Shown: positions 17,721 through 52,413, counted from the first letter of the stretch. The stretch: 64,000 nt of DNA from Alphaproteobacteria bacterium (GCA_965215635.1 CBDCEA010000004.1:214475-278474); one strand, 5' to 3'. A program made the numbers and translations. Notes: generated from the sequence alone by a model not told the origin.

Positions 17721-17821
17721 CGGGAAACAGAAACGGCATGTTTCGGCTTCCCGGTGCGAGATAGAGAAAGAATTAACAGTGTTATTACAGTTGGTTAAAT
17801 CAGGTTCGACACCAAAAGTGC
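17721..17821 (-). repeat. Conserved ~100-bp structured non-coding element, copy 1 (probable integrative-element terminus)
   Basis: Reverse complement aligns with 52313-52413: shared TAACCAACTGTAATAAC, TCTCTATC and the CGGGAA.CCGAAACATGC.GTTTCTGTTTCCCG hairpin. Confidence 0.85.
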
Positions 17822-17836
17822 AAAAGAGGTGTGAAG

Positions 17837-18541
17837 ATGAAATTTCGAGCACTGTCGTTCGACTGCTACGGCACCCTGATCGACTGGGAAAAGGGGATCG
17901 GCGAATGGCTTCTCGAATGGGCCAGGTCACACGGTGTCGAGACGGACGGCGATGACATGGTCCGGCGCCTCTTCGATGCGCAGGTTGTCGAACAGCGGCG
18001 CGACACCTTCCTTTCCTACCGCACGGTTCTTCGCAATTCCCTGGCAAGCGTCGCCGAGGGCCTCGGCATTCCTGCGAGCGAACGGGACTGCGACGACTTT
18101 GCATCGAACGCCGGCAGCTGGCCTGCCTTCGACGACACGGTGGAGGCCCTGAGGAAGCTGGCGGCCCAGGGACGATGGCTGTGCGTCATTTCCAACATCG
18201 ACCGGGATCTCTTCGCCAGGACCGCCGGAGCGCTCGAAAGGGACTTCGACATCGTCATCACCGCCCAGGATGTCGAAAGCTACAAACCCAACCTGCCCCA
18301 CTTCGAAACCCTTCTGGGTAGTCTCTCACAGAGGGGGATCACGGAAGAATCCCTGCTTCATGTCGCCCATAGCCGTTTCCACGATATCGGGCCGGCGAAC
18401 CGTCTGGGCTGGAAGAGCTGCCGCGTGGTGCGCCACGGTGACGGCTGGACGCCCGTGGAGTTGGCCGACGAAGAAGGGACATGGGCTGTCGCCGGCATGT
18501 CCGATGTCGTCGAACTCCTCGACAGGGTGGATCCGGTCTGA
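17837..18541 (+). CDS. HAD-superfamily hydrolase (haloacid dehalogenase type II-like)
   Basis: FDCYGTLIDWE, ISNID, SYKP, HVAHSRFHDI.PA. Confidence 0.88.
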   Translation: MKFRALSFDCYGTLIDWEKGIGEWLLEWARSHGVETDGDDMVRRLFDAQVVEQRRDTFLSYRTVLRNSLASVAEGLGIPASERDCDDFASNAGSWPAFDDTVEALRKLAAQGRWLCVISNIDRDLFARTAGALERDFDIVITAQDVESYKPNLPHFETLLGSLSQRGITEESLLHVAHSRFHDIGPANRLGWKSCRVVRHGDGWTPVELADEEGTWAVAGMSDVVELLDRVDPV

Positions 18542-18548
18542 CAGGCAA

Positions 18549-19457
18549 TCAGCGCTTCGCCATTTCCTCGAGCAGGAGCCATTCGGGTTTCTCGGGCCTC
18601 AGGGTCACCGAGCCTGAACGGACCTCGGCGTCTGCGGCTTCCTGGAGCCGATCCATGCGGATGAGGGCGATCCCGCAGGTTCCCACACCGCTTCTCATCT
18701 CGCCGATCTCCGCCTTGCCGGCCATGATCGGTGTCCCCGGCGCCGGCAGTTCACCGCCGCCGGTGACTGTCACGCGGAACAGGCGCCGCCTTACGGTGCC
18801 CCGGTATCTGGTCCGGGCAGTCAGTTCCTGGCCGACATAGCAGCCCTTCTCGAAGTCAACGGCGTTGAGATGGTCGAAATTGCTTTCCAGGGCGAAGGAT
18901 TTCTCGACGAGTATGTCCGTACCAGCCTCGGGAACCGCGAGCGCCATACGGTGGGCCTCGTAATCCCGGGGCGAAGCCTCGGGGATTTCCCGGAAGACAG
19001 GGCGGTCGGGACGATGGAGCGCGCGCACGCCGAGCGAGGCCAGTCTGGGATCGATCATGATGATGCACCCGTTATCGTGGCGCGCATTGCCCGGAGCGTT
19101 GAAGAGACGGGCCACCCGGGCTGCCCCGTCCCCTATGAGCGCGCTGACGCGCCATTCGCCGCTGGCATCGGAGATGTCGACCTTCGCCCGAAGCCTGTAG
19201 AAGTCGAGACGTTGGGCGAGGCTTCCGATCCGGTCCAGCCTGGTATCGAGGAGCAGGCCGCCGCTGCCGTCATCGCAGATGAAGAAGTCGAAAAGGAACT
19301 TGCCCTGGGGCGTCAGAAGGGCGGCATAGATCGATCGCGCCCGGTCGACCTTGTTGATGTCGTTGGTGATGATGCTCTGCAGGAATTCCCGTGCATCGGG
19401 GCCGGCAACGGCCAGAATGCCGCGATCTTCAAGCGCTATGCGTGTGGATTGCGCCAT
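18549..19457 (-). CDS. ygfZ: Folate-binding Fe-S cluster repair protein YgfZ
   Basis: LLTPQGK and the KGCYVGQE signature. Confidence 0.93.
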   Translation of the reverse strand: MAQSTRIALEDRGILAVAGPDAREFLQSIITNDINKVDRARSIYAALLTPQGKFLFDFFICDDGSGGLLLDTRLDRIGSLAQRLDFYRLRAKVDISDASGEWRVSALIGDGAARVARLFNAPGNARHDNGCIIMIDPRLASLGVRALHRPDRPVFREIPEASPRDYEAHRMALAVPEAGTDILVEKSFALESNFDHLNAVDFEKGCYVGQELTARTRYRGTVRRRLFRVTVTGGGELPAPGTPIMAGKAEIGEMRSGVGTCGIALIRMDRLQEAADAEVRSGSVTLRPEKPEWLLLEEMAKR

Positions 19458-19576
19458 GTGTCCCTTTTCTCCCTTTGTCAGGGGTTGAAGAATGGCGGTC
19501 GAGAGGCGTGTCGGCAAGACGGGTTTCTTGACCTGATGCGGTGGAGGCCTATACCTCGTTTTTTTCCGGGTGCCTG

Positions 19577-20620
19577 ATGCAGATCCTGTTTCTCGACGAT
19601 TCCTTTGCCTACGACGGCTACACACCGCTCAACGACGCCATGGGCGGCCCCCAGAAGGGACTCGTCCACCTTGCCGAGGCGCTGGCCGCGCGTGGTCACG
19701 ATGTCCGGGTGATGAACAGATGCGAGCGCAGCCTGACCATCCGGGGTGTCTGCTGGCAGAACCTTGATGACGACTGGACGGGAGATGCCGACCTCGCAAT
19801 TGCACTCAGGCACCCGCGCCTCCTCGAGAGGGCGCCTGCCGGGGGCTTTCGCCTTCTCTGGGTTGCCGATTGTCTCGAGGCACAGGACCAGGCGGCGCTG
19901 CCGGGAATCCTTCAGGCCTTCAGGGTGGATCGCCTCGTCTTCATGGGTGAGCATCACCTGACGTCGTGGACCGGAGACGACGGGTTGGCAATGATCATCC
20001 GGCCGGGCATCTCATCGGCCTATCTTCAGCCGGAACCTCCGGCAGGGTACTGGCCGCCGCGTGCCATCACCACGGCGCATCCAAGGGTCAGGCTTGCATG
20101 GCTCCTCGAGCTGTGGCTCAACAAGATCCGTCCCATGGTGGACGAAGCGGAATTGCATATCTTCTCGGGTCTTCTCGCCCGGGCCGCATCGGGAAAGACG
20201 ATCGACAGCGACCTGAGGCCGCTCTGGCGCGAGGTGGAGGCGGCGGCGGACAAAGGGGTGATCGTTCGCCGGCCATTGCCGGATGCGGACATGGCAGTGG
20301 AGTTTCGCCGTGCCCGTGTGCATCTCCACCCGGGTTCGATGCGCGAAGCCTATGCCGCCACACTCGCCGAATCACAGGCCGCCGGCTGTCCCGGCGTGAC
20401 TTTCAGGCAGGGCGCTTCCCAGGAACGGATCCGTGACAGCAGGTCGGGTTTCCTGGTCCCGGACGAAGCGGCGTTCGCGAACTGCGCCATTTTGTGTCTC
20501 AAGGAGGATATCGTCTACCGGGGACGATCGAAGGACGCCGCAGACATGCAGCGGGACCGGTCCTGGGACGATGCAGCTGCCGATTTCGAAGCTCTCGTCC
20601 ACGGCGCGGAGTCACGGTGA
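19577..20620 (+). CDS. Glycosyltransferase (GT-B, family 4-like)
   Basis: MGGPQKGLVHLAEALAARGHDV; EAYAATLAESQAAGCP. Confidence 0.8.
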   Translation: MQILFLDDSFAYDGYTPLNDAMGGPQKGLVHLAEALAARGHDVRVMNRCERSLTIRGVCWQNLDDDWTGDADLAIALRHPRLLERAPAGGFRLLWVADCLEAQDQAALPGILQAFRVDRLVFMGEHHLTSWTGDDGLAMIIRPGISSAYLQPEPPAGYWPPRAITTAHPRVRLAWLLELWLNKIRPMVDEAELHIFSGLLARAASGKTIDSDLRPLWREVEAAADKGVIVRRPLPDADMAVEFRRARVHLHPGSMREAYAATLAESQAAGCPGVTFRQGASQERIRDSRSGFLVPDEAAFANCAILCLKEDIVYRGRSKDAADMQRDRSWDDAAADFEALVHGAESR

Positions 20621-21516
20621 AGCTGCTCTTCATCACCTCGACCCGGCTGGGCGACGCGGTTCTCTCGACCGGCCTCCTCGACTATCTTCTGTCACGGGGG
20701 GATGTCTCGACGACCCTTGTCTGCGGCTCCGTGTCCGCGGAAATATTCGAATGCGTGCCGGGCCTTGAACGCCTGATCATCCTCGAGAAGAAGCCGGTGA
20801 AGCGGCACTGGTGGACACTCTGGCACCAGACAGTCGGAACACACTGGGATCTCGTCGTCGACCTGCGCGGCTCGGCAGTGCCCTTCGCGCTGCTGAGGAA
20901 GCGAAGGCGAACGAAGTTCAGGGCCGGCAGCGGCCATCGCGTCGCGAGCTTCGCCCAATGGTACGGCTGTGACCATGTTCCCTCCCCGAGGGTGTGGACG
21001 GACGAATACCATCGGCAAAGCGCACGTGAACTCATTCCGCAAAAGGGGCAGGTTCTCGGTCTGGCGCCAACCGCCAGTGGACTGGGAAAGGTCTGGCCCT
21101 GGAAGAACTTCGTCTCTCTTGCCACCCGTCTGACGTCATCCCAAGGTATGCTTGCCGGTGCCCGTATCGTCATCGTCGGCGGCCCCGGGGAACACCACCT
21201 GACAGGCCCGATCGTCGAGGCACTGCCCCGTGGTAGCACGATCGATCTTACCGGACGGTTGCATCTTCTCACCGTGGCGGAGGTTCTGCGGCGCTGCAAC
21301 GTCTTGGTCGCCAACGACAGCGGGCTGATGCATCTGGCTGCCGCCGGCGGTGTGCCGACGGTCGGCCTCTTCGGTCCGAGCCCGGTCGAGAACTATGCAC
21401 CCTGGGGAAGGCATACGGCGGTCGTCACGGCGGGCTCGTCCCGCATGGACGCGATCGGTGTCGATGCCGTGGAACAGTCGGTGGCAGAACTCCTCGAGCG
21501 CGTCTCACGCGGCTGA
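20617..21516 (+). CDS. Glycosyltransferase family 9 (LPS heptosyltransferase-like)
   Basis: RLGDAVLST, NDSGLMHLAAA, GLFGPS; GTG overlaps the upstream stop codon. Confidence 0.88.
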   Translation: MKLLFITSTRLGDAVLSTGLLDYLLSRGDVSTTLVCGSVSAEIFECVPGLERLIILEKKPVKRHWWTLWHQTVGTHWDLVVDLRGSAVPFALLRKRRRTKFRAGSGHRVASFAQWYGCDHVPSPRVWTDEYHRQSARELIPQKGQVLGLAPTASGLGKVWPWKNFVSLATRLTSSQGMLAGARIVIVGGPGEHHLTGPIVEALPRGSTIDLTGRLHLLTVAEVLRRCNVLVANDSGLMHLAAAGGVPTVGLFGPSPVENYAPWGRHTAVVTAGSSRMDAIGVDAVEQSVAELLERVSRG

Positions 21517-22389: not shown

Positions 22390-22508
22390 GGAGGACTCCC
22401 TCGTATGGTACGACGGTTGACCCGGTATGCATGATCCCGGACATTACATCCTGATCTCATTGCAAAAAGAAGTCCAACCACCAGGAATAAGACAAGGGGA
22501 GGAACGCG

Positions 22509-25500
22509 TTGCCCTGCTCCCATGATCCGCCCAGTTGCCTTGCCTTCGATCTCGAGGTCACGACAAACGACCGGCGGATACACCGCATCGGCGCAGTGAG
22601 GGCCGACACCGGCGAGCGGTTCACCCTTGCCGGACGGGAGGCTCGGACGTGGCTGGCACGCCTCGATGCGCTCGCCGAAGGCGCCTCCTTCGTCCTGGGT
22701 CACAACATCATCGCATTCGATCTTCCGATCCTTGCCGCCGCGAAGCCGGATCTCGACCTCCTCCTCCTTCCGGTAGTGGATACCCTGCGGCTCAATCCGC
22801 TCGCCTTTCCGGCCAATCCCTATCACAGGCTCGTCAAGCACTACCGGGACGGCGCGTTGCGGAGCGAGCAGCGGAACAACCCGGAGCACGATTCCGAACT
22901 TGCGCTCGAGCTTTTCCAGGATCAGCGCGAAGCTCTTTCGAAGATGCCGTCCGACCTCCTTGCGGCCTGGCACCGGCTCTGCACGACATGCGTCGAGGAA
23001 AGGGACCGGGCGCTCGACGGCATCTTTGCCCGGATACGCCAGGCGGCACGCCCCACCAGCGAAGGTGCCGTCGAGGCCATCGCCAGCCGGCTTGATGGTA
23101 CTGCCTGTATCGTGGCCGGCCGGGAGATCCTCGAGACGGTCGAGGACCATGGCTGGGAACTCGCCTATGCCCTTGCGTGGCTTCACGTGGCGGGAGGCAA
23201 TTCGGTGGTCCCTCCGTGGGTGCGCCACCAGTTTCCGGGAACGCAGGGCATCATCGAACGCCTGAGGGAAATCGCCTGCGCCCACCCGGACTGTGCCTGG
23301 TGCCGGGAACGCCACGATGCCACAAGGGAACTGAAGCGCTGGTTCGGCTTCGACGAATTCCGCCCGGAACCCACTATGGAGGACGGCCGGCCGATGCAGC
23401 AGGCCATCGTCGAAACGACGATGGCGGGCCGGCACGTTCTGGGGATTCTCCCCACCGGCACCGGAAAGTCGGTCTGTTATCAGATACCGGCGCTGTCACG
23501 CTACGACAAGGCCGGCGCTCTCACCGTCGTGATCTCTCCCCTGGTCGCGCTCATGGCCGATCAGGTGGCGGGACTGGAGGCGGCAGGCATCGGTGCCTGT
23601 GTCACCGTCAACGGCATGCTCTCCATTCCTGAACGGTCGGACGCGCTCGACCGGGTGAGGCTGGGAGATGCCGGTATTCTCCTCATAGCGCCCGAACAGC
23701 TTCGTTCACGTTCCGTGCTGAAGGTCCTGGACCAGCGCCGGATCGGCGGCTGGGTTCTGGACGAAGCCCATTGCCTGTCACGCTGGGGCCACGACTTCAG
23801 GCCCGACTATCGCTATGTGGCGCGCTACATCGGCAGGAGAGCGGGCGATGCCGCCATTCCTCCTGTGATGTGCCTGACCGCGACCGCCAAGCCCGATGTC
23901 GTCGAGGACATCGCCCGCCACTTCCGCGAAGAGGTCGGCATCGAGCTCGATATCCTCAACGGCGGTGCCGAACGCAACAATCTTCACTTCGAAGTGATTC
24001 GGACAGCCGCAGGCGAGAAATTTTCCGATATCCACTCCGTGTTGACGTCGTACCTGCCCGCGGACCGTCCCGGAGGCGCGATCGTCTACTGCGCGACACG
24101 CCGGCAGAGCGAGGACATCGCAGAATACCTGCAACTCAAGGGCATTCTGGCTGAACACTTTCATGCCGGACTTACGCCGGAGAAGAAGAAGGACGTGCAG
24201 CAGCGTTTCATCGCGGGAGGCCTCATCGCGATCGTGGCGACCAACGCCTTCGGCATGGGAATCGACAAGCCGGATGTGCGTCTCGTCATCCATGCCGACA
24301 TTCCGGGATCCCTGGAGAACTATCTCCAGGAGGCGGGTCGGGCCGGACGTGACCGCGAACCGGCGCGTTGCGTCCTGATGTACACGACCGACGACGTGGA
24401 GCGTCAGTTCGGGATGTCGGCGCGTTCGCGCCTCACCAGAAGGGAAATTCACGGCATCCTGCGGGCACTGCGCAATCTCGACCGCAGGAAGCGCCTCGAC
24501 GGCAAGGTGGTGGCAACACCCGGCGAGATCCTCATCGAGGACGACGAGGCCGCCTTCGAGCGCGACCCCGTGACCGATGATACCCGTGTCAGGACCGGCG
24601 TCGCATGGCTGGAGGAGGCGGTGCTCCTCTCCCGGGAGGAAAACGATGTCCGCGTGTTCCCGTCATCCCTGCGTATCGGGACGGTTGACGAAGCGAGAGC
24701 CATTGTCGCCAGGAGATCGGGCATCCATGAGAACCACAGGAAGTCCCTGCTCTCCATTGCGACAGCTCTCCTGGAGGCAGATCCGGACGAGGGTGTTTCC
24801 ACGGACGATCTGATGATGGTCTCGGGCCTTGGACCCGGGGGCGTGCGAAAGGCCCTCTACGATCTCGAAGTTTTGGGTATCTCCAGCAACGATACGACGC
24901 TCACCGCATTCGTCCATGTTGCCGTGGAGCGATCCTCCCGCAAGCGCCTTCAGCAGGCCGGGGAACTCGAGAGAGCGCTCATCACCTACATGCGCGAGGC
25001 TGCACCGGATCTCGGGAAGGGCGAGGCATCGACGCTTCATCTGCGCATCGCCTCACAGGCCATGCGGGACCAGGGACTCGCCGACCCGTTGCCGGAGAGA
25101 CTGTGGCGCATCGTCCACGGTATCGCCTCGGACGGCCGCGGCGAGGACAACACGGGCGGCAGTCTCGACGTAAGGAAGAGGGATGCGGAGACCGTGTCGG
25201 TCCGGCTGCGGCGCGAATGGGACAGTCTCGAGGAGACCGCGCTTCTTCGGCGGACGGCGGCGGCGCATCTTCTCGATCACCTGACCGGCTGTCTGCCGGA
25301 CGGGATCAGGGGAACTGATCTCCTCGCGGAGACCACACTCGGCGAGCTTCGGGCGGCCATCGACTCGGATCTGGTGATCAGGGCCAGGGTCAGCGACACC
25401 TCTCGGCTGCTTGACCGCTCACTCATGTGGCTGCACGAGCAGGAGGTCGTTCGCCTCAACAAGGGGCTGACGGTCTTCCGTTCCGCAATGACCATCAGGC

Positions 25501-27611
25501 TCGAGGATGGAACGCGGGGTTTCGCGGCGGTCGATTTCGAGCCCCTCCGGCTCCATTACGAGGGCAAGGTCCTGCAGATTCACATCATGGCGGAGTTTGC
25601 CCAACGCGGCCTCGAAGCCATCGGCGAGGCGCTCAATCTGGCGATGGACTATTTCTCGCTTCGCGAGAGCGACTTTTTCGAGAAGTGGCTCTCCGGACGG
25701 GACAAGGAGATTGGCAGGGAAACCACGCCCGATTCCTGGAACAGGATCGTCGAGGTCCTCGGCAATCCCGAGCAGAAGCGGATCGTTGCCGATTCCCGTG
25801 AACAGACCAATGTTCTCGTGCTCGCCGGCCCGGGGTCCGGCAAGACCCGTGTGCTGGTGCATCGCATCGCCTGGCTGGTGCGCGTGAAGCGGGAGAACCC
25901 GCGGCGCATTCTGGCTCTCGCCTATAACCGCCATGCTGCAGTGGAGATCCGTCAGCGCCTTCTCGACCTCATCGGAGACGACGCCCGCGGTGTCACCGTG
26001 TTGACCTGCCATGCCATGGCCATGCGCCTTGCCGGTGCGAGCTTCGCAGCATCGGCCGAACGGCCCGATGACGAGATGTTCAAGTCGATCCTTCGCCAGG
26101 CGGTTGCCGTGCTGAAGGGCGATGGACTCGAGCCGGAGGAGGCGGACGAGCGCAGGGAGCGTCTGCTGACCGGATTCCGGTGGATCCTGGTCGACGAGTA
26201 TCAGGACATCGGCCCGGACCAGTACGAACTCATTTCGGCCCTCGCCGGAAGGACACTTACCGATGACGACGCGAAGCTCACCATCTTCGCGGTGGGCGAT
26301 GACGATCAGAACATCTACGCCTTCAACGGTGCGTCGGTGGAGTTCATCCGGAAATTCGAGAAGGACTACGGACCAAGGCCCTTCCACCTCACTTCGAACT
26401 ACCGCTCGACAGGCCATATCGTCGAGGCGGCCAACGCGATGATCGAACCTGCCGGCGAGAGGATGAAGAGCGGACATCCCGGCGGTGTCGACCATGGACG
26501 TGCCGGGGATCCTCGGGGCGGAATCTGGCAGGGGCTCGATCCGGTATCGAAGGGACGGGTGCAGATTCTTCCCGCCGGCTGCGATCCCGTCTTCCAGGCA
26601 CGGGTCGTCATGACGGAGCTGCTGCGCCTCTCGTGTCTTCCCGGGATCTGGGACTGGTCGAGGTGCGCCGTTATCGCCCGGGAGTGGACCAATCTCGATC
26701 CCGTGCGTGCATTCTGCGAGACGCAGGATATACCGGTTCAGATGGCAAACGAGGAACCCCCCGGCTTCTGGCGGTTGCGCGAGACCGCAGCCTTCGTGGC
26801 ATGGTTGCGGGGAAAGGACCCCCGGATCGTCGATGACACCGCTCTTCGGGGATGGCAGGAGACACGGCCCGGCGGGCCCTGGTACGAACTCCTGTGTCAG
26901 GCGATCGTCGAATGGAGGCTGGAGACCGGAGGCGCAGAAACACCGGTCGACCGGTTCATCGAATGGCTTGCGGAATGGGGGAGGGACGTTCGCCGGCGCC
27001 AGCACGGTCTGCTGCTCTTGAGCGGCCATCGGGCCAAGGGGCTTGAATTCGACCATGTCGCCGTTCTCGATGGCGGCTGGGAACGCGTTGGAAGAGGCGA
27101 GGACCGGGATGCGCCAAGACGCCTCTACTACGTTGCGATGACGCGCGCCCGGCAGACATTGACTTTGGCGCGCTTCGAAGGACGCAACCGTCTCCTCGAC
27201 GACCTTGCCGACAGCCGTTCCATTCTGGTGCGCGATGCTTTCGAGCCTCACCCCGGTTCCCCGGCGCTACATCACCGCCATGTCAGGTGCTCCCTGAAGG
27301 ATGTGGATCTGGGCTTTGCCGGGCGCAACAACACGTGGAGTCCGGTGCATGAGGCGATTGCCGGCCTCGCCCCGGGTGATTCGCTCGACATGCGGGAGAA
27401 CCGGGAACTTCTGGACCGGAAAGGGCGCCTGGTAGGCCGCCTTTCCAGACACTTCCAGGCGCCCGAAGGGATGAAGTGCCGTTCCGCCGCGGTAATGGCG
27501 GTCGTCAACTGGAACCGCTCCTCGTCGGATCCGGACTACCTCGACCGGATTCGCTGCGAGACCTGGGAGACAGTCGTTCCGGAATTCGTGTTCGAACCGG
27601 AGAACGGGTAG
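22509..27611 (+). CDS. DEDD exonuclease-like + RecQ (SF2) + UvrD (SF1) fusion helicase
   Basis: FDLE / GHNIIAFD; PTGTGKSVCYQ, DEAH, ATNAFGMGIDK, QEAGRAGRD; AGPGSGKT, DEYQD, VGDDDQNIY, HRAKGLEF, RRLYYVAMTRA. Confidence 0.92.
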   Translation: MPCSHDPPSCLAFDLEVTTNDRRIHRIGAVRADTGERFTLAGREARTWLARLDALAEGASFVLGHNIIAFDLPILAAAKPDLDLLLLPVVDTLRLNPLAFPANPYHRLVKHYRDGALRSEQRNNPEHDSELALELFQDQREALSKMPSDLLAAWHRLCTTCVEERDRALDGIFARIRQAARPTSEGAVEAIASRLDGTACIVAGREILETVEDHGWELAYALAWLHVAGGNSVVPPWVRHQFPGTQGIIERLREIACAHPDCAWCRERHDATRELKRWFGFDEFRPEPTMEDGRPMQQAIVETTMAGRHVLGILPTGTGKSVCYQIPALSRYDKAGALTVVISPLVALMADQVAGLEAAGIGACVTVNGMLSIPERSDALDRVRLGDAGILLIAPEQLRSRSVLKVLDQRRIGGWVLDEAHCLSRWGHDFRPDYRYVARYIGRRAGDAAIPPVMCLTATAKPDVVEDIARHFREEVGIELDILNGGAERNNLHFEVIRTAAGEKFSDIHSVLTSYLPADRPGGAIVYCATRRQSEDIAEYLQLKGILAEHFHAGLTPEKKKDVQQRFIAGGLIAIVATNAFGMGIDKPDVRLVIHADIPGSLENYLQEAGRAGRDREPARCVLMYTTDDVERQFGMSARSRLTRREIHGILRALRNLDRRKRLDGKVVATPGEILIEDDEAAFERDPVTDDTRVRTGVAWLEEAVLLSREENDVRVFPSSLRIGTVDEARAIVARRSGIHENHRKSLLSIATALLEADPDEGVSTDDLMMVSGLGPGGVRKALYDLEVLGISSNDTTLTAFVHVAVERSSRKRLQQAGELERALITYMREAAPDLGKGEASTLHLRIASQAMRDQGLADPLPERLWRIVHGIASDGRGEDNTGGSLDVRKRDAETVSVRLRREWDSLEETALLRRTAAAHLLDHLTGCLPDGIRGTDLLAETTLGELRAAIDSDLVIRARVSDTSRLLDRSLMWLHEQEVVRLNKGLTVFRSAMTIRLEDGTRGFAAVDFEPLRLHYEGKVLQIHIMAEFAQRGLEAIGEALNLAMDYFSLRESDFFEKWLSGRDKEIGRETTPDSWNRIVEVLGNPEQKRIVADSREQTNVLVLAGPGSGKTRVLVHRIAWLVRVKRENPRRILALAYNRHAAVEIRQRLLDLIGDDARGVTVLTCHAMAMRLAGASFAASAERPDDEMFKSILRQAVAVLKGDGLEPEEADERRERLLTGFRWILVDEYQDIGPDQYELISALAGRTLTDDDAKLTIFAVGDDDQNIYAFNGASVEFIRKFEKDYGPRPFHLTSNYRSTGHIVEAANAMIEPAGERMKSGHPGGVDHGRAGDPRGGIWQGLDPVSKGRVQILPAGCDPVFQARVVMTELLRLSCLPGIWDWSRCAVIAREWTNLDPVRAFCETQDIPVQMANEEPPGFWRLRETAAFVAWLRGKDPRIVDDTALRGWQETRPGGPWYELLCQAIVEWRLETGGAETPVDRFIEWLAEWGRDVRRRQHGLLLLSGHRAKGLEFDHVAVLDGGWERVGRGEDRDAPRRLYYVAMTRARQTLTLARFEGRNRLLDDLADSRSILVRDAFEPHPGSPALHHRHVRCSLKDVDLGFAGRNNTWSPVHEAIAGLAPGDSLDMRENRELLDRKGRLVGRLSRHFQAPEGMKCRSAAVMAVVNWNRSSSDPDYLDRIRCETWETVVPEFVFEPENG

Positions 27612-27623
27612 AACTCGTCGTCG

Positions 27624-42842: not shown

Positions 42843-42893
42843 AGATCCCGCGGACATGTCGGCGCGTCGCCCGGAGCGCAAGAAGGGAACCGG

Positions 42894-43120: not shown

Positions 43121-43236
43121 AACCGAAGAGAAGACGATCAGGGTTCGGTTGATATCGGGGTGGACCGGGCTGGTGTCGCGGCATTACGTCACACCGGCCG
43201 TTGTCAGGGTCCTTTGTGGAGTTGCGGGAGGGCGTC

Positions 43237-44136: not shown

Positions 44137-44149
44137 TCTGCCCGGTTCA

Positions 44150-44874
44150 CTTTTTTTTGCCGATATCATGTGTCTGACGACGTGAAAGGAGTCCCGTCCG
44201 GTCATCGAGCCACGACCGATGACGTTGTGGAAATCGGGAATGGTGAAGAACCGTGTCGAATCACGCCCGCTGGAAGAGCGGCTCTGGATCATGTTCCGAT
44301 CGTGACGGCGACGGAACCGGGCAATGGATCGGCAGAGACCCACCTGCCATCCCGATTCCGGATTTCGGATCCCGCCTGGACAACAATCGTGAAGGCATCG
44401 TCGTCGCAAGTTCGGGTGGACGCCATACCGGTTCGCCTCCCCCTGGGTCCGGGGCGGATGGTGGAGCAGGGAGACTGGCGACAGCGGCACGGTAAAGAAC
44501 CGGCTGAGATGGTACTCGGTGGTTTCCATTGCCAGGACAAGGACCCTCAGGACATATGCAGCGAGGCCGGCCAGAGCGCCGTGACAGGCTATCATCATTG
44601 TCAGGAACGTCGGCAACCGGTTCAGTCCCCGCAAGGGCGCGCCGGAGACATCCGTCCGGTTGTTCTCGAAGTCCCTCTGGACGTTGAACTGCTGGTAGAG
44701 GTCGGGTTGGCTGAAGCCTTCGGCGGGGAGGTAGCCGCGACAGCGGTCCCTGGCCGCGAGGACCCGTCGATTCTGTGACCGGAAAGATGGAAGAACCCGG
44801 TATAACGGCGCGCCCTGACGATTCCGAGGATGGTACTGAGATCCCGAATAGTCGGTGACGGGAAGAGCGGTCAT
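44150..44874 (-). pseudogene. Isopenicillin N synthase-family 2OG-Fe(II) oxygenase, frameshifted
   Basis: RGYLP, PDL, PLRGLN, LLHHPP in one frame; DDAFTIVVQ..EIRNRDGRWV.ADPLPGSVAVTIG in another. Confidence 0.7.
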
Positions 44875-44981
44875 GGAGAAACGTTGCTCACTGTCGACGT
44901 CTGATTGTCGGGATTTGCCGCACCCGATAGACTCCCGCGGGTCGGACTGCAGATTTGCCGCACGAAAGCTGGGGGAAATTC

Positions 44982-46394
44982 ATGACGAGCGACATGGCAA
45001 TCGCGATAGCCGGCCGCCACGAGAGGTTCGCTGCGATCAGCAAGGAATACCCGGAACACGGTGTCGAGTTCGTCCAGATACACATGCCCGACCTGACGGG
45101 CCTGCTGCGCACGAAGTACGCACCCTTCAAGATGTCGGAGACGGGCGAATCCTTCAATGCGATCCTCTTCAATGTGGCACATTCCGACGGCGCGCCCATC
45201 GGGGATGTGGTGTTCGATGCCCCGATCTGCTGGCTCGACAACGGTTACGGCAGCATCCAGGCGCTTGCCGATCCGGATTCGGCGGCGATTCACGGCTGGC
45301 GCCCGAATGTCTGCTCGATCATGCTCGACACCTTCATGGCTGACGGGTCGGCGTGTGAGATCGATCTGCGGCAGCGTCTCAAAAGGATCGAGGACCAGGC
45401 ACACGACATGGGTTTCGAGGCGAAGATCGGCTTCGAGATCGAATTCGGGCTCTTCCATTACGACGAGGAGCTGGTCCAGCAGGGGCGCTACGCAGAGTTG
45501 CGACCGCACGGCAAGAGCTTCACAAACTACGACATGTTACGTGCACCGGGCTACGAGGATCTCATGCAGGAGTTCATCCACCGCATGAAGAGTCTGGACT
45601 ATCCGGTGGCCTCATTTGTCTCGGAATACGGTCGGGGCATGTACGAATTCGCGATGAAGCCGCTAGCGCCGCTTGCCGCTGCGGACGGTATCACCCGTGC
45701 CAAGCATCACCTCAAGGAACTCTGCCTCGAGCGCGGCCTGATCGCGACATTCATGACCCGCTTCCAGGGACCGGGCGGCGAGAGCTCTTCGGGAACCCAC
45801 ATCCATCAGTGCCTGGTGGACGCCGCCACGGGCGCCAACGTCTTCCATGATCCCGATGGCGGACTCTCCCAGACGGCGCGGCACTATGCTGCGGGCCTTC
45901 TTGCCACGATGGCAGACTTTCACGCGGTGTTCCGGCCGACCGTCAATTCCTACCGGCGGATGGACCGCCAAGCCTGGTCGCCCGAGGAAATTTACTGGGG
46001 CATCGAGAACCGCACAGCTCCGGTCCGCGCAATCACGAGGCCGGACGCCAACGCATGCCGGATGGAACACCGCTGCGCAGGATCGGATGTCAATCCCTAC
46101 CTTGCGGTCATGGCGACACTCGGCCCGGGCCTCAAGGCAGTCGCCGGGAAGTGGGAACCCTGGGAACTCGTCCCCGGTATCTCCCGGACGGCGCAGGAGG
46201 AACTTCCCCTCCACAGATCCCTGGCGGACGCCCTCGCACAATTCAGGACGTCAACGATCGCCGCCGAGATCCTGGGAACGGATCTCCACGAGCAGTACGT
46301 GCTGAGCCGGGAGAACGAACTCGCCGCCTTCGAGACGTGGCAGGCGCAGAACATCACAAGTTTCGAATACCAGCGCTACTTCGAGGGTGTGTAG
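44982..46394 (+). CDS. Glutamine synthetase-like gamma-glutamyl ligase (PuuA/PauA-like)
   Basis: GFEIEF, SEYGRGMYEF, SGTHIHQ, NSYRR, WGIENRT, RMEHR; adjacent to an amine ABC transporter. Confidence 0.85.
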   Translation: MTSDMAIAIAGRHERFAAISKEYPEHGVEFVQIHMPDLTGLLRTKYAPFKMSETGESFNAILFNVAHSDGAPIGDVVFDAPICWLDNGYGSIQALADPDSAAIHGWRPNVCSIMLDTFMADGSACEIDLRQRLKRIEDQAHDMGFEAKIGFEIEFGLFHYDEELVQQGRYAELRPHGKSFTNYDMLRAPGYEDLMQEFIHRMKSLDYPVASFVSEYGRGMYEFAMKPLAPLAAADGITRAKHHLKELCLERGLIATFMTRFQGPGGESSSGTHIHQCLVDAATGANVFHDPDGGLSQTARHYAAGLLATMADFHAVFRPTVNSYRRMDRQAWSPEEIYWGIENRTAPVRAITRPDANACRMEHRCAGSDVNPYLAVMATLGPGLKAVAGKWEPWELVPGISRTAQEELPLHRSLADALAQFRTSTIAAEILGTDLHEQYVLSRENELAAFETWQAQNITSFEYQRYFEGV

Positions 46395-46404
46395 GCAGAA
46401 CGGC

Positions 46405-47154
46405 TCAGGGCTTCGCCATGCATCCGCCGTCGACGATCAGTTCCGTGCCGGTGATGTAGCTTGCCTTGTCGGAAAGCAGGAAGAGGGCGGCGTTCGCGAT
46501 GTCCTCTGCTTCGCCGACCCTCCCCAGGGGAACATGGCTGTTGATCGCTGCGATCGCCTCCGAATTGTTGTCCCAACGCGCCTGCATCGGCGTGTGTACC
46601 GGACCCGGAAGGATCGTGTTCGAGCGGATGCCGTCGCCGGCGAACTGGATCGCCAGGGACTTCGAGAGACGCACCACACCGGCCTTGGCAGCGCCATAGG
46701 CGTCCTGCGGCCTTTCGTCGCCCCTTGCGGCATCGGTAGACGCGATGTGCACCATCGCGCCGCCGCCCGTGGCCTTCATGTGCGGTATGGCATGGCGTGC
46801 GGTCAGGGCGAATGACTTGAGGTTGATGTCGAGCACGCGATCCCAGACGGCCATGTCCATTTCGACGCACGACTTGTCCCTGTCGAACCAGAGAACACCG
46901 GTCGTGTTGACCAGGTAATCGAGCCGTCCCGTTTTCCGGGTGGTCCTTTCGACGACGTCCCTGACAAAGGCCTCGTCCGTGACATCGCCCTGGTGGTAGT
47001 CGACCTTGCCCTTGCTCCCGGCGAGTTCAACGGGCTCGGGCTTGATATCCATGACGGTGACCTGTGCACCCTCTGCCGCCAGGTTACGGACGATTGCAAG
47101 ACCCATACCGCCTCCGCCGCCAGCAACGACTGCCGCCTTTCCAGCAAAATCCAT
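46405..47154 (-). CDS. Short-chain dehydrogenase/reductase
   Basis: AGGGGGMG, YGAAK, IRSNTILPG, YITG.ELIVDGG. Confidence 0.9.
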   Translation of the reverse strand: MDFAGKAAVVAGGGGGMGLAIVRNLAAEGAQVTVMDIKPEPVELAGSKGKVDYHQGDVTDEAFVRDVVERTTRKTGRLDYLVNTTGVLWFDRDKSCVEMDMAVWDRVLDINLKSFALTARHAIPHMKATGGGAMVHIASTDAARGDERPQDAYGAAKAGVVRLSKSLAIQFAGDGIRSNTILPGPVHTPMQARWDNNSEAIAAINSHVPLGRVGEAEDIANAALFLLSDKASYITGTELIVDGGCMAKP

Positions 47155-47177
47155 TCCCGTTCTCCCGAGGTTGCCCG

Positions 47178-47990
47178 TCACTCCCGATGGCCGAAACTCA
47201 CGATCCGGTAGCGCATCAGGAGATACATCGTCGCGAAGGCCAGGAACACGACGCCGTTGACGAAGGCCGCCAGCGCGGGCAGTTCCGGACCGAGGCCGTG
47301 ACGCAGGGAACCCCAGGCAGTTGAAGGCAGCGTCTGGGTTGCGCCAAGGTTATAGAAGGCAATTTCCAGATTGTTGAAGGCCAGGATGAAACTGATGATG
47401 AAGGCGCCCAGCATTGCAGGCCAGATGTTCGGCAGGGTGACTTCCCGGAAACAGCGCAGAGGTCTCGCACCCATCACCAGCGCCGCATCGTCAAGCCGCC
47501 AGTCATAGCGCGCCATTTGGGCCAGCACGATCAGGAACGCGAAGGCTGTGCCGGGGATCGAAATCGCGACAGTGGTGGAAACCATGTTGCCGGAGAGGTC
47601 GAGAACCTGGCGGTTGAAGATCAGACTGGAAATCCCGATCAGGAGGTTCGAGACGAAGAGCGGACAAAGGTATGTGATGACGACGAATTTGCGCCAGCGC
47701 GAACGATACTTCAGGACCGCCATGGCGCCGATCGTGGCGAAGAATGTGCAGACCACGGCGCTGCCCAGGCCCAGCGTCAGGCTGTTGTAGAGAGCTTCGT
47801 GGTAGGTTCGGCCGACCCACAGGAGTTTGTAGCCGTCCAGCGATAGCTTGAACGGGAAGGGCCAGGCGATGTTCTTCGAGAACGACTGGTAGATGATGTA
47901 GAAGATCGGCGCGTAAAGGAAGAAATAGAGCAGGGCGAGCATGGTTCCCGACAGCATGCGGGAGATGACGGTGGAGACATCACCCTTCAT
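47178..47990 (-). CDS. ABC transporter permease (PotC-like)
   Basis: DDAALVMGA EAA loop, six TM helices. Confidence 0.88.
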   Translation of the reverse strand: MKGDVSTVISRMLSGTMLALLYFFLYAPIFYIIYQSFSKNIAWPFPFKLSLDGYKLLWVGRTYHEALYNSLTLGLGSAVVCTFFATIGAMAVLKYRSRWRKFVVITYLCPLFVSNLLIGISSLIFNRQVLDLSGNMVSTTVAISIPGTAFAFLIVLAQMARYDWRLDDAALVMGARPLRCFREVTLPNIWPAMLGAFIISFILAFNNLEIAFYNLGATQTLPSTAWGSLRHGLGPELPALAAFVNGVVFLAFATMYLLMRYRIVSFGHRE

Positions 47991-47992
47991 GC

Positions 47993-48880
47993 TCAGGCTT
48001 CTTTCCCCGTGAATCCGCTGCGTTTCAGATCGACGCTGCGCCACATCAGGAGCACAGCTGCCGATGAGACCACGAACAGCACAACGCCCATCGCCGAACC
48101 GAGCGCCCAGGTTCCGGTCTCGCCGAACTGCTTGCCCAGCACCGAACCGAACGCCGCGCCGTTGGGTCCGCCCAGAAAGATCGGTGTAACCGAGGCAGCC
48201 ATGCAGGGAACGAAGACGATGACGAGGCCGATGGCCGTTCCCATCCAGTTCAACGGCCAGGTAATCTCGACGAAGGCGCGCCAGGGCCTCGCGCCGTTAA
48301 TCTTCGCTACTTCAAGGAGTTCGAAGTCGAAGTTGAGGAGTGAAAGGTATATGGCCGTCACCATGAACGGCATGTAGAGGTAGAAAAGCCCGATGCCCGT
48401 GGCCAGCTGCGAGAACATGATAGCCTCGACCGGCGCCATGCCGAAGGTCATGAGGGTCATGTTGAAGGCACCCACGGGGCCCATGAGACCCTGCAGGGCC
48501 GACACCCTGAGAATGATTCCCGTGAAGAAGGGACCGGCGAGCGCCAGGATCATGAGCAGGCGGTAGCGGTTTCCGTAACGAGCTATGAAGAACGCCACGG
48601 GCCAGCCGTAGACGAGGCATGCCAGGGAGACACAGACCGCCGTGGCGAAGGAGCGCCACAGGAAGACCATGTAGGTCTCTTCGGAGAATAGCACGCGGTA
48701 GTTGTCGAGATTCCAGTCCGGGTAGATCTCGTAGACCTCGGTGCGCCAGAAACTGAACACGATGATCGAGATGATCGGCAGGAACAGAAATACGACAATG
48801 AAGACAGCACCGGGCAGCCCCATCAAAAGAAAACGCTGACTTTCGCTCAGTCTGCGTTCTCTTCCGGACACGGCTGTCAT
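47993..48880 (-). CDS. ABC transporter permease (PotB-like)
   Basis: YMPFMV, LLEVAKINGA, TPIFLGG. Confidence 0.88.
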   Translation of the reverse strand: MTAVSGRERRLSESQRFLLMGLPGAVFIVVFLFLPIISIIVFSFWRTEVYEIYPDWNLDNYRVLFSEETYMVFLWRSFATAVCVSLACLVYGWPVAFFIARYGNRYRLLMILALAGPFFTGIILRVSALQGLMGPVGAFNMTLMTFGMAPVEAIMFSQLATGIGLFYLYMPFMVTAIYLSLLNFDFELLEVAKINGARPWRAFVEITWPLNWMGTAIGLVIVFVPCMAASVTPIFLGGPNGAAFGSVLGKQFGETGTWALGSAMGVVLFVVSSAAVLLMWRSVDLKRSGFTGKEA

Positions 48881-49974
48881 ACCCCAGCGCCATCGGAAGC
48901 GAAACAGTGGCTGTCTTCCGCGCGCCAGACGACACGGACATCGTCGCCTGCCTTCAGGCTTTCGTGTTCGGTCGCCGTGCTGATCGTCATTTCCTGTTTG
49001 TTGCCGGCCACGACCTGGTAGTCGACACCGGCACCCTTGAAGATAATATCCCGAAGGCGTCCGTCGACGCTGTTAACACCCCCGTCCTGCGGTGCGCCGC
49101 CGCCGGCTTCGACCCTCATCCGTTCGCACTTGACGAAGCAGTCCATCATGGTGCCGGCAGCGATGCCGTCGGCAAGCGGAACCTTCAGCACGATACCGTT
49201 CCAGTCGAGCGTGCCGGTTCCGGCGGAAGCAGATACCAGGCGACCGTGTAGACGGTTGGAATGTCCGACGAACCCGGCCACGAAACGCGTGGCCGGGTTC
49301 TTGTAGACATCGTGTTTCTTGGCCACCTGTTCGAAGATGCCGTTGTTCATGACCGCGATGCGGTCGGACATGGTCAGCGCTTCTTCCTGATTGTGTGTGA
49401 CGTAGATGAAGGGAATGCCGAGCTCGAGCTGGTAGCGCCTGACCTCCACTTCCATCTCCTTCCGCAATTCGCGGTCGAGATTGGCGAGCGGCTCATCGAG
49501 CAACAGCAGGACCGGCCGGGCGATCAGGCCGCGCGCCAGCGCGACCCTCTGCTGCTGGCCGCCGGAAAGCTGGTTGGGGTAGCGGTCTTCCAGCCCTTCC
49601 AGGTGAAGCAGGTCCACGGCCCACTTCAGCCGTTCGTCCTGTTCACCCCTGGAAACGCCCTGCATGCGCAATGGGAACACAATGTTCTCGCCGACGCGCT
49701 TGTGGGGAAAGAGCATGAAGTCCTGAAACACCATGCCGATGCCGCGCGAATAGGGGGGCTCGCGCGTGACATCGGATCCATTGATTGCGACACGGCCCTG
49801 ATCGGTGCTCTCGAGGCCCGCGATGATGCGCAGCAGTGTCGTCTTGCCGGAACCGCTTGGTCCGAGGAGGGCGAGAAACTCCTTCTGGCCGATATCGATC
49901 GAGACGGAATCGACGGCGATAACCGGCCCGAACCGCTTCGAGACCCGGTCGATGCTGAGAACGGCTTCGCTCAT
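48877..49974 (-). CDS. ABC transporter ATP-binding protein (PotA-like)
   Basis: [28 protein letters not shown]-terminal TOBE region. Confidence 0.92.
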
Positions 49975-50049
49975 GGAGTCCGCTGCAAGGCCTGATGTGA
50001 AATAGATGGGACCGGTCCGTCATTCGGACCGGTCCCGCAACGCTCGGCG

Positions 50050-51240
50050 TCAGGCAGCTTCGACCTCGTTCCAGATGCGTTCCCACTTCTCCGGTGAGGA
50101 CGGCTGGTCGAACATGTGGAGACCACGCAGTTCCGCGGTGCGATCCATCAAGAGCAGGGCGACTTCCTCTTCGGGCAGCAGATCGCGCACGTCGAAACAC
50201 GGTGCCACACCGATCTCGGCGACCCGCTTCATGCTCTCGCGGCTGACGTAATGGTTCATCCAGTGGTGTGCCAGTTCGATCGCCTCGCTGTCAGTCGTTG
50301 CGGAGCTCAACTGCCAGCTGTCGATCCAGCCCAGCCCGCCTTCCTTGGGCTGCAGCATGTGGGCCACGTCGAAATCGATTTCACCTGCCCAGCGTGCACG
50401 GGTCAGCCTGCGATAGATTTCCGAGAACTCCGGAGAGGCCCAGACCAGACCCGGGCGCATTAGCCGCTGAAGGCCATCGTAGTCCGTGTAGCGCGTCACG
50501 AGCAGACCCTTCTGCTTGATCAGGAGCTCCTTGGCCCTTGTGAGTTCGTCGTCCGTCAGCTTGTAGGGATTGAACGGCTGCCCGTCAGGACGCTCATCGG
50601 TCGTGGTGCCCATCTCGGTCGCCGCGAGGATGCCCGCCATGGCGATGTTCTCCTCGAACCTCGCACCGGTCGAGAGATGTCCGGCATACTTCTCGTCGAA
50701 CATCACGTTGAGTGTGTCACGGTCTTCTTCCACGATATGGTCGAGATTCATCGTGATGCCGTAGCTGCCCCAACAGTTCATGACACCGATCAGCTGTCCG
50801 CCCGGCACGTCGTGCAGGAGGTCGTAGGCGCCCGGCTTGAAGTCCTCAAAACTGTTCTGGAGGTTGGGAACGAGGTCTTCCCTGATCGGCTGGATCAGGC
50901 CATCACGCAGGTAGAGGCGTGGCCAGAAACCATCAGCCATGACGAGATCGAAATCCTCGGTTCCGCCGGCCTTCATTTTGTTGAAGGCTTCCGAATTGCC
51001 GTCGAAGAACTGTGGCGCGATGCGTGCTCCGTAGGTTTCCTCGAATTCCGTAACCGTTTCCTGAATGATGTAGTCTTCCCACATCAGCATCCGAACGGTC
51101 GGCGTTGCTGCCTCGGCATTACGGATGTAGGGCATGCCGAGCGCGACGCCCGCACCGGCGGCCGCGGTTGTCTTCAAGACATCGCGGCGGTTCCACTTGG
51201 ACTTCGAACTCCTGTCAATCATGGCTTTACGTGTTGCCAT
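50050..51240 (-). CDS. Tat-exported PotD/PotF-like substrate-binding protein
   Basis: NRRDVLK signal, WEDYI, PKEGGLGWID. Confidence 0.87.
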   Translation of the reverse strand: MATRKAMIDRSSKSKWNRRDVLKTTAAAGAGVALGMPYIRNAEAATPTVRMLMWEDYIIQETVTEFEETYGARIAPQFFDGNSEAFNKMKAGGTEDFDLVMADGFWPRLYLRDGLIQPIREDLVPNLQNSFEDFKPGAYDLLHDVPGGQLIGVMNCWGSYGITMNLDHIVEEDRDTLNVMFDEKYAGHLSTGARFEENIAMAGILAATEMGTTTDERPDGQPFNPYKLTDDELTRAKELLIKQKGLLVTRYTDYDGLQRLMRPGLVWASPEFSEIYRRLTRARWAGEIDFDVAHMLQPKEGGLGWIDSWQLSSATTDSEAIELAHHWMNHYVSRESMKRVAEIGVAPCFDVRDLLPEEEVALLLMDRTAELRGLHMFDQPSSPEKWERIWNEVEAA

Positions 51241-51327
51241 CGTTTTCCTCCTCAGAATGAAACACTTGGTGGAGATGATGATACAGGAAGATGGCGTCAC
51301 AATGAACCATCGGACAAGGGGTGAACC

Positions 51328-52101
51328 ATGAGGCTCGAGAATCGGTCCATCATCGTTACCGGCGCGGGAAGGGGCATCGGTGCCGCCAGTGCGCGGCATT
51401 TTGCCACCGAGGGTGCCCGTCTGCTTCTGGTGGCGCGAACCGGCGCGGAACTGGAAACCGTCGCCGGACCGCTTCGGCAATCAGGTGCCGATGTCGTCAC
51501 GTGTGTTGCCGACGTCACGGACCCCGACGCCTGCGTTGGCGCCGCGCGCCATGTGGCCGATGCCTTCGGCCGCATCGACGGGCTGTTCAATAATGCAGGC
51601 CAGCTCATCGACGGTGATGCGGGCCTCCTCGATACCTCGTTCGAGACCTGGAAACGCACGCTCGAGGCCAATCTTCATTCGGTCTTCCTGATGTCGAGAG
51701 CCGTGGTTCCCTACCTCGTGGAGGCAGGAGGTGGAGCCATCGTCAACAATGCCTCGATGGTCGCCCATATCGGATCGGCGACGGCACAGACCGCCTACTG
51801 CGCGTCGAAGGGTGGCGTGGTTGCCCTGAGCCGGGAGATGGCGGTCGAGTTCGCAAGCAAAAACATCCGCGTGAACGCCGTCTCGCCGGGGCCCGTCGCA
51901 ACAGATCTCTTTCACAGCATCATTGGTTCGACGCCTGGTTACATGGAACGAAGGCTTCCTCACATGCCCATGAAACGCCTCGGAAAAGTCCATGAAATCG
52001 CCGCAGTTGCTGGATTTCTTCTGAGCGACGAGGCCTCCTATCTCACCGGACAGTCCATTCTCGTCGACGGCGGCATTACCGCAGCCTACACCACCTGCTG
52101 A
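51328..52101 (+). CDS. Short-chain dehydrogenase/reductase
   Basis: TGAGRGIG, NNAG, YCASKGG, RVNAVSPGP. Confidence 0.92.
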   Translation: MRLENRSIIVTGAGRGIGAASARHFATEGARLLLVARTGAELETVAGPLRQSGADVVTCVADVTDPDACVGAARHVADAFGRIDGLFNNAGQLIDGDAGLLDTSFETWKRTLEANLHSVFLMSRAVVPYLVEAGGGAIVNNASMVAHIGSATAQTAYCASKGGVVALSREMAVEFASKNIRVNAVSPGPVATDLFHSIIGSTPGYMERRLPHMPMKRLGKVHEIAAVAGFLLSDEASYLTGQSILVDGGITAAYTTC

Positions 52102-52311
52102 ACCGGATGGCTGAAGGCCTGCTCCTCCAGCCAGCGAAAGTGCGCCTGGGTTCCGTCCCCGGTAGGTCCGGTCATGTGGCGCAACAGGAACGCTCCCAGG
52201 CGCTGACGCGCCTTGAGCTCGATCGCCTTCATGTCCTCGCGGGCCCGCGTCAGGTCGCGCATCGCTTCCCGGTCGCCATCGGAAACCCAAACCCAAACCC
52301 ACACAGATGTA
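52102..52311 (-). pseudogene. IS110-family transposase internal fragment
   Basis: TSVWV..D.DREAMRDLTRAREDMK...ARQRLGAFLLRH...HFRWLE. Confidence 0.8.
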
Positions 52312-52312
52312 C

Positions 52313-52413
52313 GCACCTTCGGTGCTAAACCAGAAATAACCAACTGTAATAACGTCATTATTTCTCTCTCTATCCCGTACCGGGAACCCGAAACATGCAG
52401 TTTCTGTTTCCCG
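52313..52413 (+). repeat. Conserved ~100-bp structured non-coding element, copy 2, directly upstream of the integrase
   Basis: GCACCTTCGGTGC hairpin, TAACCAACTGTAATAAC, CGGGAACCCGAAACATGCAGTTTCTGTTTCCCG; begins where IS110 homology ends. Confidence 0.85.

Follow-up and report, generated by a model that had tools for sequence, protein, structure and literature searches.

Two copies of a ~100-nt structured repeat face each other across 34.5 kb of an alphaproteobacterial chromosome, each next to a region that contains a tyrosine integrase sequence. The question raised by this locus is what the repeat is, and whether the two copies are the ends of one mobile element. The copies lie in a 64,000-nt stretch of Alphaproteobacteria bacterium DNA (hereinafter, the window), which is C5:214475-278474 of the source genome G000 (4.66 Mb in six contigs, 62% G+C). 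The initial annotation, made from the sequence alone, took them for the inverted ends of relaxase-mobilised elements and mentioned a leader RNA as the alternative. Our analysis indicates that the repeat (hereinafter, the module) is probably the integrase-side end (attL, or the P' arm of attP) of lineage-restricted, multicopy integrative islands, fused to the leader of an integrase operon. Four observations carry this reading: the module precedes the integrase gene intA, it lies at insertion junctions, the direct repeats that bound islands end at its first hairpin, and both of its helices covary.

A module at the head of a two-integrase operon

The window copies, 17721-17821 on the minus strand (copy 1) and 52313-52413 on the plus strand (copy 2), align without gaps over 101 nt at 82.2% identity (blastn E 6e-23), and all features originally described are present: an outer hairpin (hairpin 1), which in copy 1 includes two G.T pairs; the 17-mer TAACCAACTGTAATAAC, identical in the two copies; a pyrimidine tract; and a long hairpin (hairpin 2) in which 12 of the 14 positions are paired in each copy, with two C.T mismatches (Table 1). 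In the complete G000 genome, nhmmer with a five-sequence seed detected 31 copies (E<0.01) and a covariance model detected 34 (E<=1e-5); thus, the repeat is real and represents a family rather than a pair. Neither window copy belongs to an Rfam family at the gathering threshold, the sole matches in a cmscan search of the whole window being a group II intron domain and tRNA-Val.

Alignment of the 31 copies with their flanks showed that conservation begins ~13 nt outside the previously reported start, at CACACC (CACACA in copy 2), and, after a variable spacer of 6-7 nt, continues from hairpin 1 unbroken through a purine-rich Shine-Dalgarno (SD) region to the ATG of intA. A conserved block, TAAC...CTG(A/T)A.A.AAC, is located inward of hairpin 1, and the motif GGTGC(N)AAC recurs 3' of hairpin 2.

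The proposed tie to one family of tyrosine integrases holds both within and outside G000. The 5' end of intA follows the module in 25 of the 31 own-genome copies by tblastn, and three more retain only its first ~45 nt in DNA alignments; in these 28 copies, the module ends ~27 nt before the intA ATG. The three solo copies (copy 1, C5:587122 and C1:673417) are truncations of the module-intA unit, and spread in the manner of a miniature inverted-repeat transposable element without an adjacent recombinase does not fit a family in which 28 of 31 members adjoin an intA 5' end. Using an IntA alignment to scan species-representative genomes, we identified 78 loci, nearly all from metagenome-assembled genomes titled Alphaproteobacteria and often several per genome; a model of the module (R1; 61 matches at E<=0.001) is found directly before the intA ATG in 56 of these loci, and a full-length intB gene is located downstream in 57.

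IntA, which starts with MPxxRLTQRRVDALKPR, is a P4-like tyrosine integrase of ~375 amino acids (aa), and IntB, encoded immediately 3' of it by a gene that abuts intA or overlaps it by 0-4 nt, consists of ~382 aa and is ~35% identical to IntA. Both proteins contain an Arm-DNA-bind_3 N-terminus, a central domain and a catalytic domain (Pfam) with the complete, invariant set of catalytic residues (R, K, H-x-x-R, H, Y), and neither matches an NCBIfam model at the cutoff. A recombinase trio of the RIT type was considered and rejected: there are two genes rather than three, and the seeming third matches are C-terminal fragments of intB. Intact frames in G000 are few (IntA in 7 of the 31 copies, IntB in 5 and both in 2), which implies that most of the copies are decayed and that much of the signal is a fossil record of past insertions.

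The module lies at insertion junctions

Comparison with relatives places the module at the edge of inserted DNA, with the cargo downstream of intB. The clearest case is a 16.1-kb insert at C6:784178 that carries the module and intA at its left end and for which three relatives retain a contiguous empty site. Here, the module-side GTCACACTTTCCA matches the far-side GTCACACCTTCCA, forming a 12/13-nt direct repeat at both synteny breaks; the junctions read GTCACACTTTCCA|CC-GCACC... and ...GTCACACCTTCCA|GATAGTCG, and the empty site in the relatives reads CCACGTCCTTCCAG / CCACGTCCTTCCAGTAGTCG. These junctions, together with the empty site, identify ACACC plus the spacer as the att core, with the spacer matching the target. 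The second case, a 5.2-kb island at C5:352928, is bounded by a 49/52-nt direct repeat, the two copies being 5,165 nt apart, in which identity extends no further than the initial two bases of hairpin 1. These two islands are those in which the core is directly repeated at the far end.

In all five loci tested, synteny with relatives holds on the left until 25-440 nt from the module, and on the right it is absent for at least 8 kb. The loci with left synteny of this kind include C6:873495, C6:695643 and C1:338018, where the inserts are ~60 kb and ~18.6 kb long in the cases in which the far side could be located. The module lies just inside a junction defined by an empty site in copy 1 and C6:784178, and approximately so (25-440 nt) in three more loci. 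The region of C4:39512 is a mosaic in the synteny comparison. As a separate observation, the synteny of relatives to the left of C1:338018 resumes on another G000 contig (C1:337640 / C3:45076), which points either to a rearrangement that involved an element or to a join made in assembly.

Copy 1 provides the junction within the window. In six relatives, the ppdK stop codon is 10-20 nt upstream of the ATG of a HAD-hydrolase gene, whereas in G000 homology to these genomes ends at ~10855-10861 and restarts exactly at 17837, the HAD ATG; the CACACC of copy 1 is located 4 nt from this point. The intervening ~6.9-kb island has ATGAA at both junctions (10888-10892 and 17837-17841), and its far and near ends read CTCTCACCTG and CTTCACACCT, respectively. 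It carries chrA, an open reading frame (ORF) for a YHS-domain protein, an IS630-type transposase gene, an intA fragment and an amine oxidase gene (Pfam), with copy 1 at the right edge, facing outward. Copy 1 is the integrase-side end of this separate, oppositely oriented island, the integrase genes of which have been lost. The intA fragment, inverted relative to copy 1, begins 16 nt past the stop codon of the IS630-type transposase gene (13846-15228, plus strand), an arrangement suggesting that the integrase operon was broken by activity of the insertion sequence (IS) together with an inversion. In the place where the SD region and intA would follow copy 1 (17650-17705, minus strand), there are two direct repeats of ACTTGACCGAGAATCC ~24 nt apart and a partial third, ACTTGACCGCG.

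As originally proposed, the islands are not inserted at tRNA genes: ARAGORN predicted 47 tRNA genes plus a single tmRNA in G000, and all 31 module copies are more than 10 kb away from the nearest of them, so that a tRNA-integrating P4-like island was rejected as a description of the family. A palindrome of flank and spacer around CACAC was not detected either, the fold energies of the 26 nt before hairpin 1 being no lower than those of control windows (p = 0.98) or of swapped flanks (p = 0.44). The cargo examined is metabolic and includes molybdenum hydroxylase, ABC transporters, amidohydrolases and IS fragments. Neither relaxase nor conjugation genes were found among the window ORFs or in three other islands, of which the first 8-10 kb of cargo (21 ORFs) were covered.

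Given this layout, the ACACC motif with its 6-7-nt spacer would be the site of crossover with the target, repeated at the far end of the island, and the adjacent GCACC-N3-GGTGC is most likely a core-type recombinase binding site. The TAAC...CTG(A/T)A.A.AAC block and GGTGC(N)AAC are candidate arm-type sites and/or part of the integrase promoter; the recombinases would then bind GCACC/GGTGC as well as the repeated GGTGC(N)AAC and CTG(A/T)AA motifs. The conserved coupling of the two genes suggests that IntA and IntB act together.

Covarying helices suggest a link between the island end and intA translation

The two hairpins are conserved in different ways. In 61 foreign sequences, hairpin 1 is paired at 98.6% and near-invariant in sequence, variation being restricted to the 3-nt loop; this pattern is more in keeping with an inverted repeat that binds a protein than with selection on the shape of the fold only. 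In hairpin 2, the sequence is free and the pairing is kept: in the same 61 sequences, all 16 pairs have changed on both sides, and none of 500 shuffles matches the score, albeit in an alignment that was fitted to the model, which tempers this result; slid controls fall far below the observed score.

The pyrimidine tract is complementary to the intA SD region in nearly every copy, and the two partners shift together between subfamilies: TTTTCTCTCTC occurs with GAGAGAGAAA, TTTTCCTCCTG with CAGGAGGAA, and GATTGCG..TCCG with CGGAGAC.CGCAATC. Among nine divergent representatives, cognate tract:SD duplexes have a mean energy of -21.0 kcal/mol compared to -16.7 kcal/mol, with 8 of 20,000 permutations as low, and the cognate SD is the best partner of the tract in five of the nine. 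In folds of the whole leader, the tract:SD helix encloses hairpin 2 (z = -3.8 for copy 2 and z = -6.1 for an intact element). Thus, compensatory changes of the kind expected of a structured 5' leader are found both in hairpin 2 and in the tract:SD helix.

In IS10 and IS50, a segment close to the end of the element can pair with the ribosome-binding site of the transposase gene, and transcripts that enter from outside would be translationally silent owing to this fold-back inhibition. The module is similar in that one of its segments can likewise pair with the ribosome-binding site of a recombinase gene; it differs in that an integrase operon is involved and the helix encloses a second hairpin. 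By analogy with IS10, the tract:SD helix enclosing hairpin 2 can be predicted to hold intA translation low in transcripts that contain the tract, for example, those produced by read-through from host genes.

Weighing an att arm with a leader against a leader alone

Several observations count against the combination of an att arm and a leader. With regard to the att arm, the module is set back into the island by 340-440 nt from the synteny break in two loci, and clean attL/attR repeats were found in two islands only, in addition to the weaker case of copy 1, where the end-to-end core match is only ~10/16 nt, compared to C6:784178 and C5:352928. When far-end repeats of each 15-nt core were sought blindly over 150 kb, 110 matches were obtained downstream and 117 upstream, that is, no enrichment; the only standouts were C5:352928 (exact) and the already known C6:784178. 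For copy 2, comparison of window positions 44500-64000 with five relatives recovered repeats and paralogs only, and the right end of the island was not found. The breakpoint hot spot at the 3' end of intB (see below) is left unexplained by an att arm and a leader. With regard to RNA, hairpin 2 shows no excess of G.U over A.C (GT+TG 64 versus AC+CA 79), sense and antisense fold energies are equal for the tract:SD duplex, hairpin 2 and the whole leader, and a sigma-70 scan of 52150-52500 detected no promoter-like site. Within G000 alone, covariation is not significant, with 25 of 500 shuffles reaching the observed percentage paired, and RNAalifold found no consensus structure for the 31 own-genome copies. 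The leader RNA alternative mentioned in the initial annotation gains from the covariation of the helices and loses from the lack of a G.U excess and of a sense/antisense difference.

The strongest competing explanation is that the module has no role as DNA and is purely a cis-regulatory RNA leader of intA-intB, so that its placement at island edges simply follows that of the integrase genes. This would account for the covariation of both helices, for the SD itself being one arm of a long-range helix and for a module that always ends at the intA ATG. We nevertheless consider it rather unlikely: hairpin 1 and ACACC are conserved in sequence beyond mere pairing, hairpin 1 is the exact point at which the direct repeats of the far ends terminate, the solo copy 1 retains the outer 103 nt at its junction despite the loss of the SD and intA, and the strand asymmetry expected of an RNA is lacking.

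Public sequencing runs did not bear on the choice. Of the 24 runs listed, 20 (from 11 studies) hold the intact element or part of it, in contigs only; these are short fragments of a repeat family, from which neither circle junctions nor transcript ends could be read. Small pieces of intB and of the flank are present in two RNA-library runs, but this is no evidence of transcription.

A second breakpoint at the 3' end of intB

Homology between cassettes that are 85-97% identical does not reach the end of intB but stops within its last 10-25 codons, beyond which the tail varies with the locus. In one subfamily, a 29-nt stretch at the intB 3' end exactly reproduces positions 26-54 of the initiator tRNA-Met (C6:489819-489895, complement), such that the intB stop codon falls within the anticodon loop of the tRNA. 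Past this stretch, the sequence continues either into the true 3' part of the tRNA and its terminator (five loci) or into a conserved ATCGCGGTAGAG...CGGTTRACCG; a displaced 5' half of the tRNA was found neither elsewhere in the genome nor upstream of any module. These breakpoints suggest a second recombination site. In phage Mx8, attP lies inside the coding end of the integrase gene intP, and the locus-specific IntB C-terminal tails look as if a recombination site were similarly placed in the 3' end of the gene; the present islands differ in that their demonstrated junction lies at the opposite side of the operon, which would make the site in intB a second one.

An additional observation on this region concerns one subfamily only, in which an inverted outer-end motif, ACACC-ATC-GGTGC-N4-GGTGTG, occurs 15-60 nt past the intB stop codon (Table 1).

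A second competing explanation takes the ~2.4-kb module-intA-intB cassette to be itself mobile, in the manner of an IS: its left boundary would be the ACACC core and its right boundary another site, within the 3' end of intB, and the DNA farther rightward would not be its cargo. Besides the locus-specific tails and the tRNA-Met segment joined to the true tRNA 3' part, it would account for the fact that, in many genomes, pairs of loci that are at least 85% identical share almost only positions ~4870-7260 of the locus, which correspond to the cassette. The direct repeats, however, bound units of 16 kb and 5.2 kb and not of 2.4 kb, and we found a lone cassette between syntenic flanks in none of the five loci tested, no empty site in G000 for any of the 78 foreign loci, and no case of the tRNA 5' half upstream of the module. 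Autonomous mobility of the cassette thus appears distinctly improbable.

A broader scheme, which we put forward as a tentative possibility, is as follows: an obligate XerC/XerD-like pair of IntA and IntB would insert cargo islands at short ACACC-containing sites throughout the chromosome, and the cassette would possess two recombination sites, namely, the ACACC core together with the structured arm that precedes intA, and a site inside the intB 3' end that in one subfamily reproduces the 29 nt of initiator tRNA-Met. Such a cassette could swap or capture cargo, with the IntB C-terminus rewritten in each event and the SD-sequestering leader shielding the operon from read-through.

The two window copies belong to different islands

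The DNA between copies 1 and 2 encodes the HAD hydrolase, a CAF17-like protein, glycosyltransferases, tRNA-Val and glnS, and its core genes are syntenic with relatives, which implies that the two copies belong to two separate islands. Copy 2 is indeed a left, that is, integrase-side end, as the initial annotation had it, with hairpin 2 stopping 26 nt short of the ATG at 52441 that starts an Arm-DNA-bind_3 integrase frame; no intB follows the broken intA. The same annotation had copy 1 as the inverted right end that pairs with copy 2, a part that we replace with the separate island described above.

That the modules are long structured terminal inverted repeats of relaxase-mobilised tyrosine recombinase elements, copy 2 forming the left end and copy 1 an inverted right end, is hardly credible: it is suggested by the facing orientation of the window copies and by a short inverted version of the outer ~25 nt after intB in L087, L089 and two G000 loci, but it fails on the syntenic housekeeping genes between the copies, on copy 1 bounding a separate island on its other side, on an inverted partner (GGTGC-N4-GGTGT) being present in only 2 of 57 loci in local alignments of each left end with the reverse-complemented 250-nt region surrounding the intB stop codon, on the absence from G000 of oppositely oriented module pairs at element spacing (nhmmer), and on the lack of a relaxase among the ORFs covered.

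As for the latter, a MOBF relaxase had been assigned to the accessory region, and a Pfam search of 63 window ORFs detected no relaxase family. The ORF at 22509-27611 (plus strand; 1,700 aa) encodes a DEAD/Helicase_C module fused to a UvrD-type helicase module, without a TrwC-type domain, and is probably what had been taken for the relaxase. The IS110 homology reported immediately to the left of copy 2 could not be confirmed, as the 60-aa piece has no Pfam match and no other copy in G000; matches of 79-80% exist in two relatives.

Mobile elements abound to the right of copy 2, where the DNA is non-syntenic with relatives and as mosaic as that of the C4:39512 region. This DNA includes the Rfam group II intron domain D1-D4-4 at 62915-63054 (plus strand; 83.6 bits), which adjoins IS21-type istA/istB genes (58596-60848, minus strand) and a DUF3991/Toprim ORF (57320-58165).

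Table 1. Coordinates of module components, island and integrase remnants in the window, and of related motifs at other loci
Feature	Position	Strand	Basis
Copy 1: inserted island, ~6.9 kb, between ppdK and HAD-hydrolase gene	10893..17836		synteny with 6 relatives, Pfam
Copy 1: putative att core, CACACC (17828-17833) plus 6-nt spacer TCTTTT (17822-17827)	17822..17833	-	sequence; ACACC kept in nearly all copies
Copy 1: hairpin 1, GCACT-TTT-GGTGT	17809..17821	-	family consensus GCACC-N3-GGTGC
Copy 1: pyrimidine tract (predicted anti-SD arm), without SD partner in this copy	17763..17772	-	sequence, duplex test
Copy 1: hairpin 2, CCGGGAAGCCGAAAC-ATGCC-GTTTCTGTTTCCCG	17721..17754	-	sequence; family homology ends ~2 nt beyond
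Copy 1 island: intA-type integrase fragment, aa ~200-271, inverted relative to copy 1	15244..15457	+	tblastn; weak Phage_integrase Pfam match, E 0.004
Copy 2: putative att core, CACACA (52300-52305) plus 7-nt spacer GATGTAC	52300..52312	+	sequence, family alignment
Copy 2: hairpin 1, GCACC-TTC-GGTGC	52313..52325	+	sequence, fold
Copy 2: pyrimidine tract (predicted anti-SD arm)	52361..52371	+	sequence, duplex, fold
Copy 2: hairpin 2	52380..52414	+	sequence, fold
Copy 2: intA purine-rich Shine-Dalgarno region AAGGGAGAGAGAA, complementary to the tract	52427..52439	+	duplex -15.9 kcal/mol, fold
Copy 2: intA pseudogene, broken frame; three tblastn pieces, first open stretch 207 codons	52441..53419	+	tblastn, ORF
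intB/tRNA-Met 29-nt stretch	C3:173495-173521, C3:290332-290360, C2:214335-214367, C1:703601-703621, C6:934241-934265; L058, L059, L084
Inverted outer-end motif after intB	L087, L089; G000 C6:875880-875960, C6:1219330-1219410

Relationship to known integrative elements

The closest known kind is the P4-type (Arm-DNA-bind_3 / DUF4102) integrase island. The similarities include the same integrase architecture (arm-binding N-terminus, SAM-like/central and catalytic domains), an integrase gene at one edge directly inside attL, short direct repeats at both ends and metabolic cargo without conjugation genes. The present family differs from these islands in having two translationally coupled integrases instead of one, a non-tRNA target with a short ACACC-containing core, up to 34 copies in one genome and integrases that reach no NCBIfam model at the cutoff.

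Other integrative elements also encode multiple recombinases, namely, GInts (ginABCD), Tn554 (tnpABC) and the RIT trios. A further such group, SE (strand-biased circularizing integrative element), has an intA-tfp-intB-srap operon and imperfect inverted terminal motifs of 13-19 bp, and blocks of SE core genes were reported only in Gammaproteobacteria, at 1-2 copies per replicon (PMC10214605). The present family resembles SE, GInts, Tn554 and RIT elements in the presence of several tyrosine recombinase genes in a left-end operon with the cargo rightward, in non-tRNA targets and the absence of mobilisation genes, and in a variable hexamer-sized spacer beside a conserved terminal motif. It is set apart by having only two integrase genes, of ordinary size and both with arm-binding domains, and, from SE, by an alphaproteobacterial host. 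Membership in SE specifically was rejected: there is no tfp between intA and intB, which abut or overlap by 0-4 nt, and there are no 13-19 bp terminal inverted repeats. Full-text literature on tandem or adjacent integrase genes contained, among the matches listed, nothing on this family, which is not proof of its being unpublished.

Distribution and implications

The family appears to be confined to one lineage. Within the genus, the module is present in 14 of 23 genomes, at 1-17 copies each outside G000, and none was found under stricter filters in 150 other genomes sampled across the class. The module is a practical marker of island borders in uncultured Alphaproteobacteria that are rich in these elements. 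The presence of an att arm and a predicted translation-blocking leader in a single piece of ~150 nt makes the regulation of integrase synthesis at element ends a testable proposition. The combination of two coupled integrases with a short non-tRNA core may explain multiplication within one genome, and if the XerC/XerD-like pair and the two-site cassette are real, the islands would represent a new class of two-integrase mobile elements that reach ~30 copies per genome.

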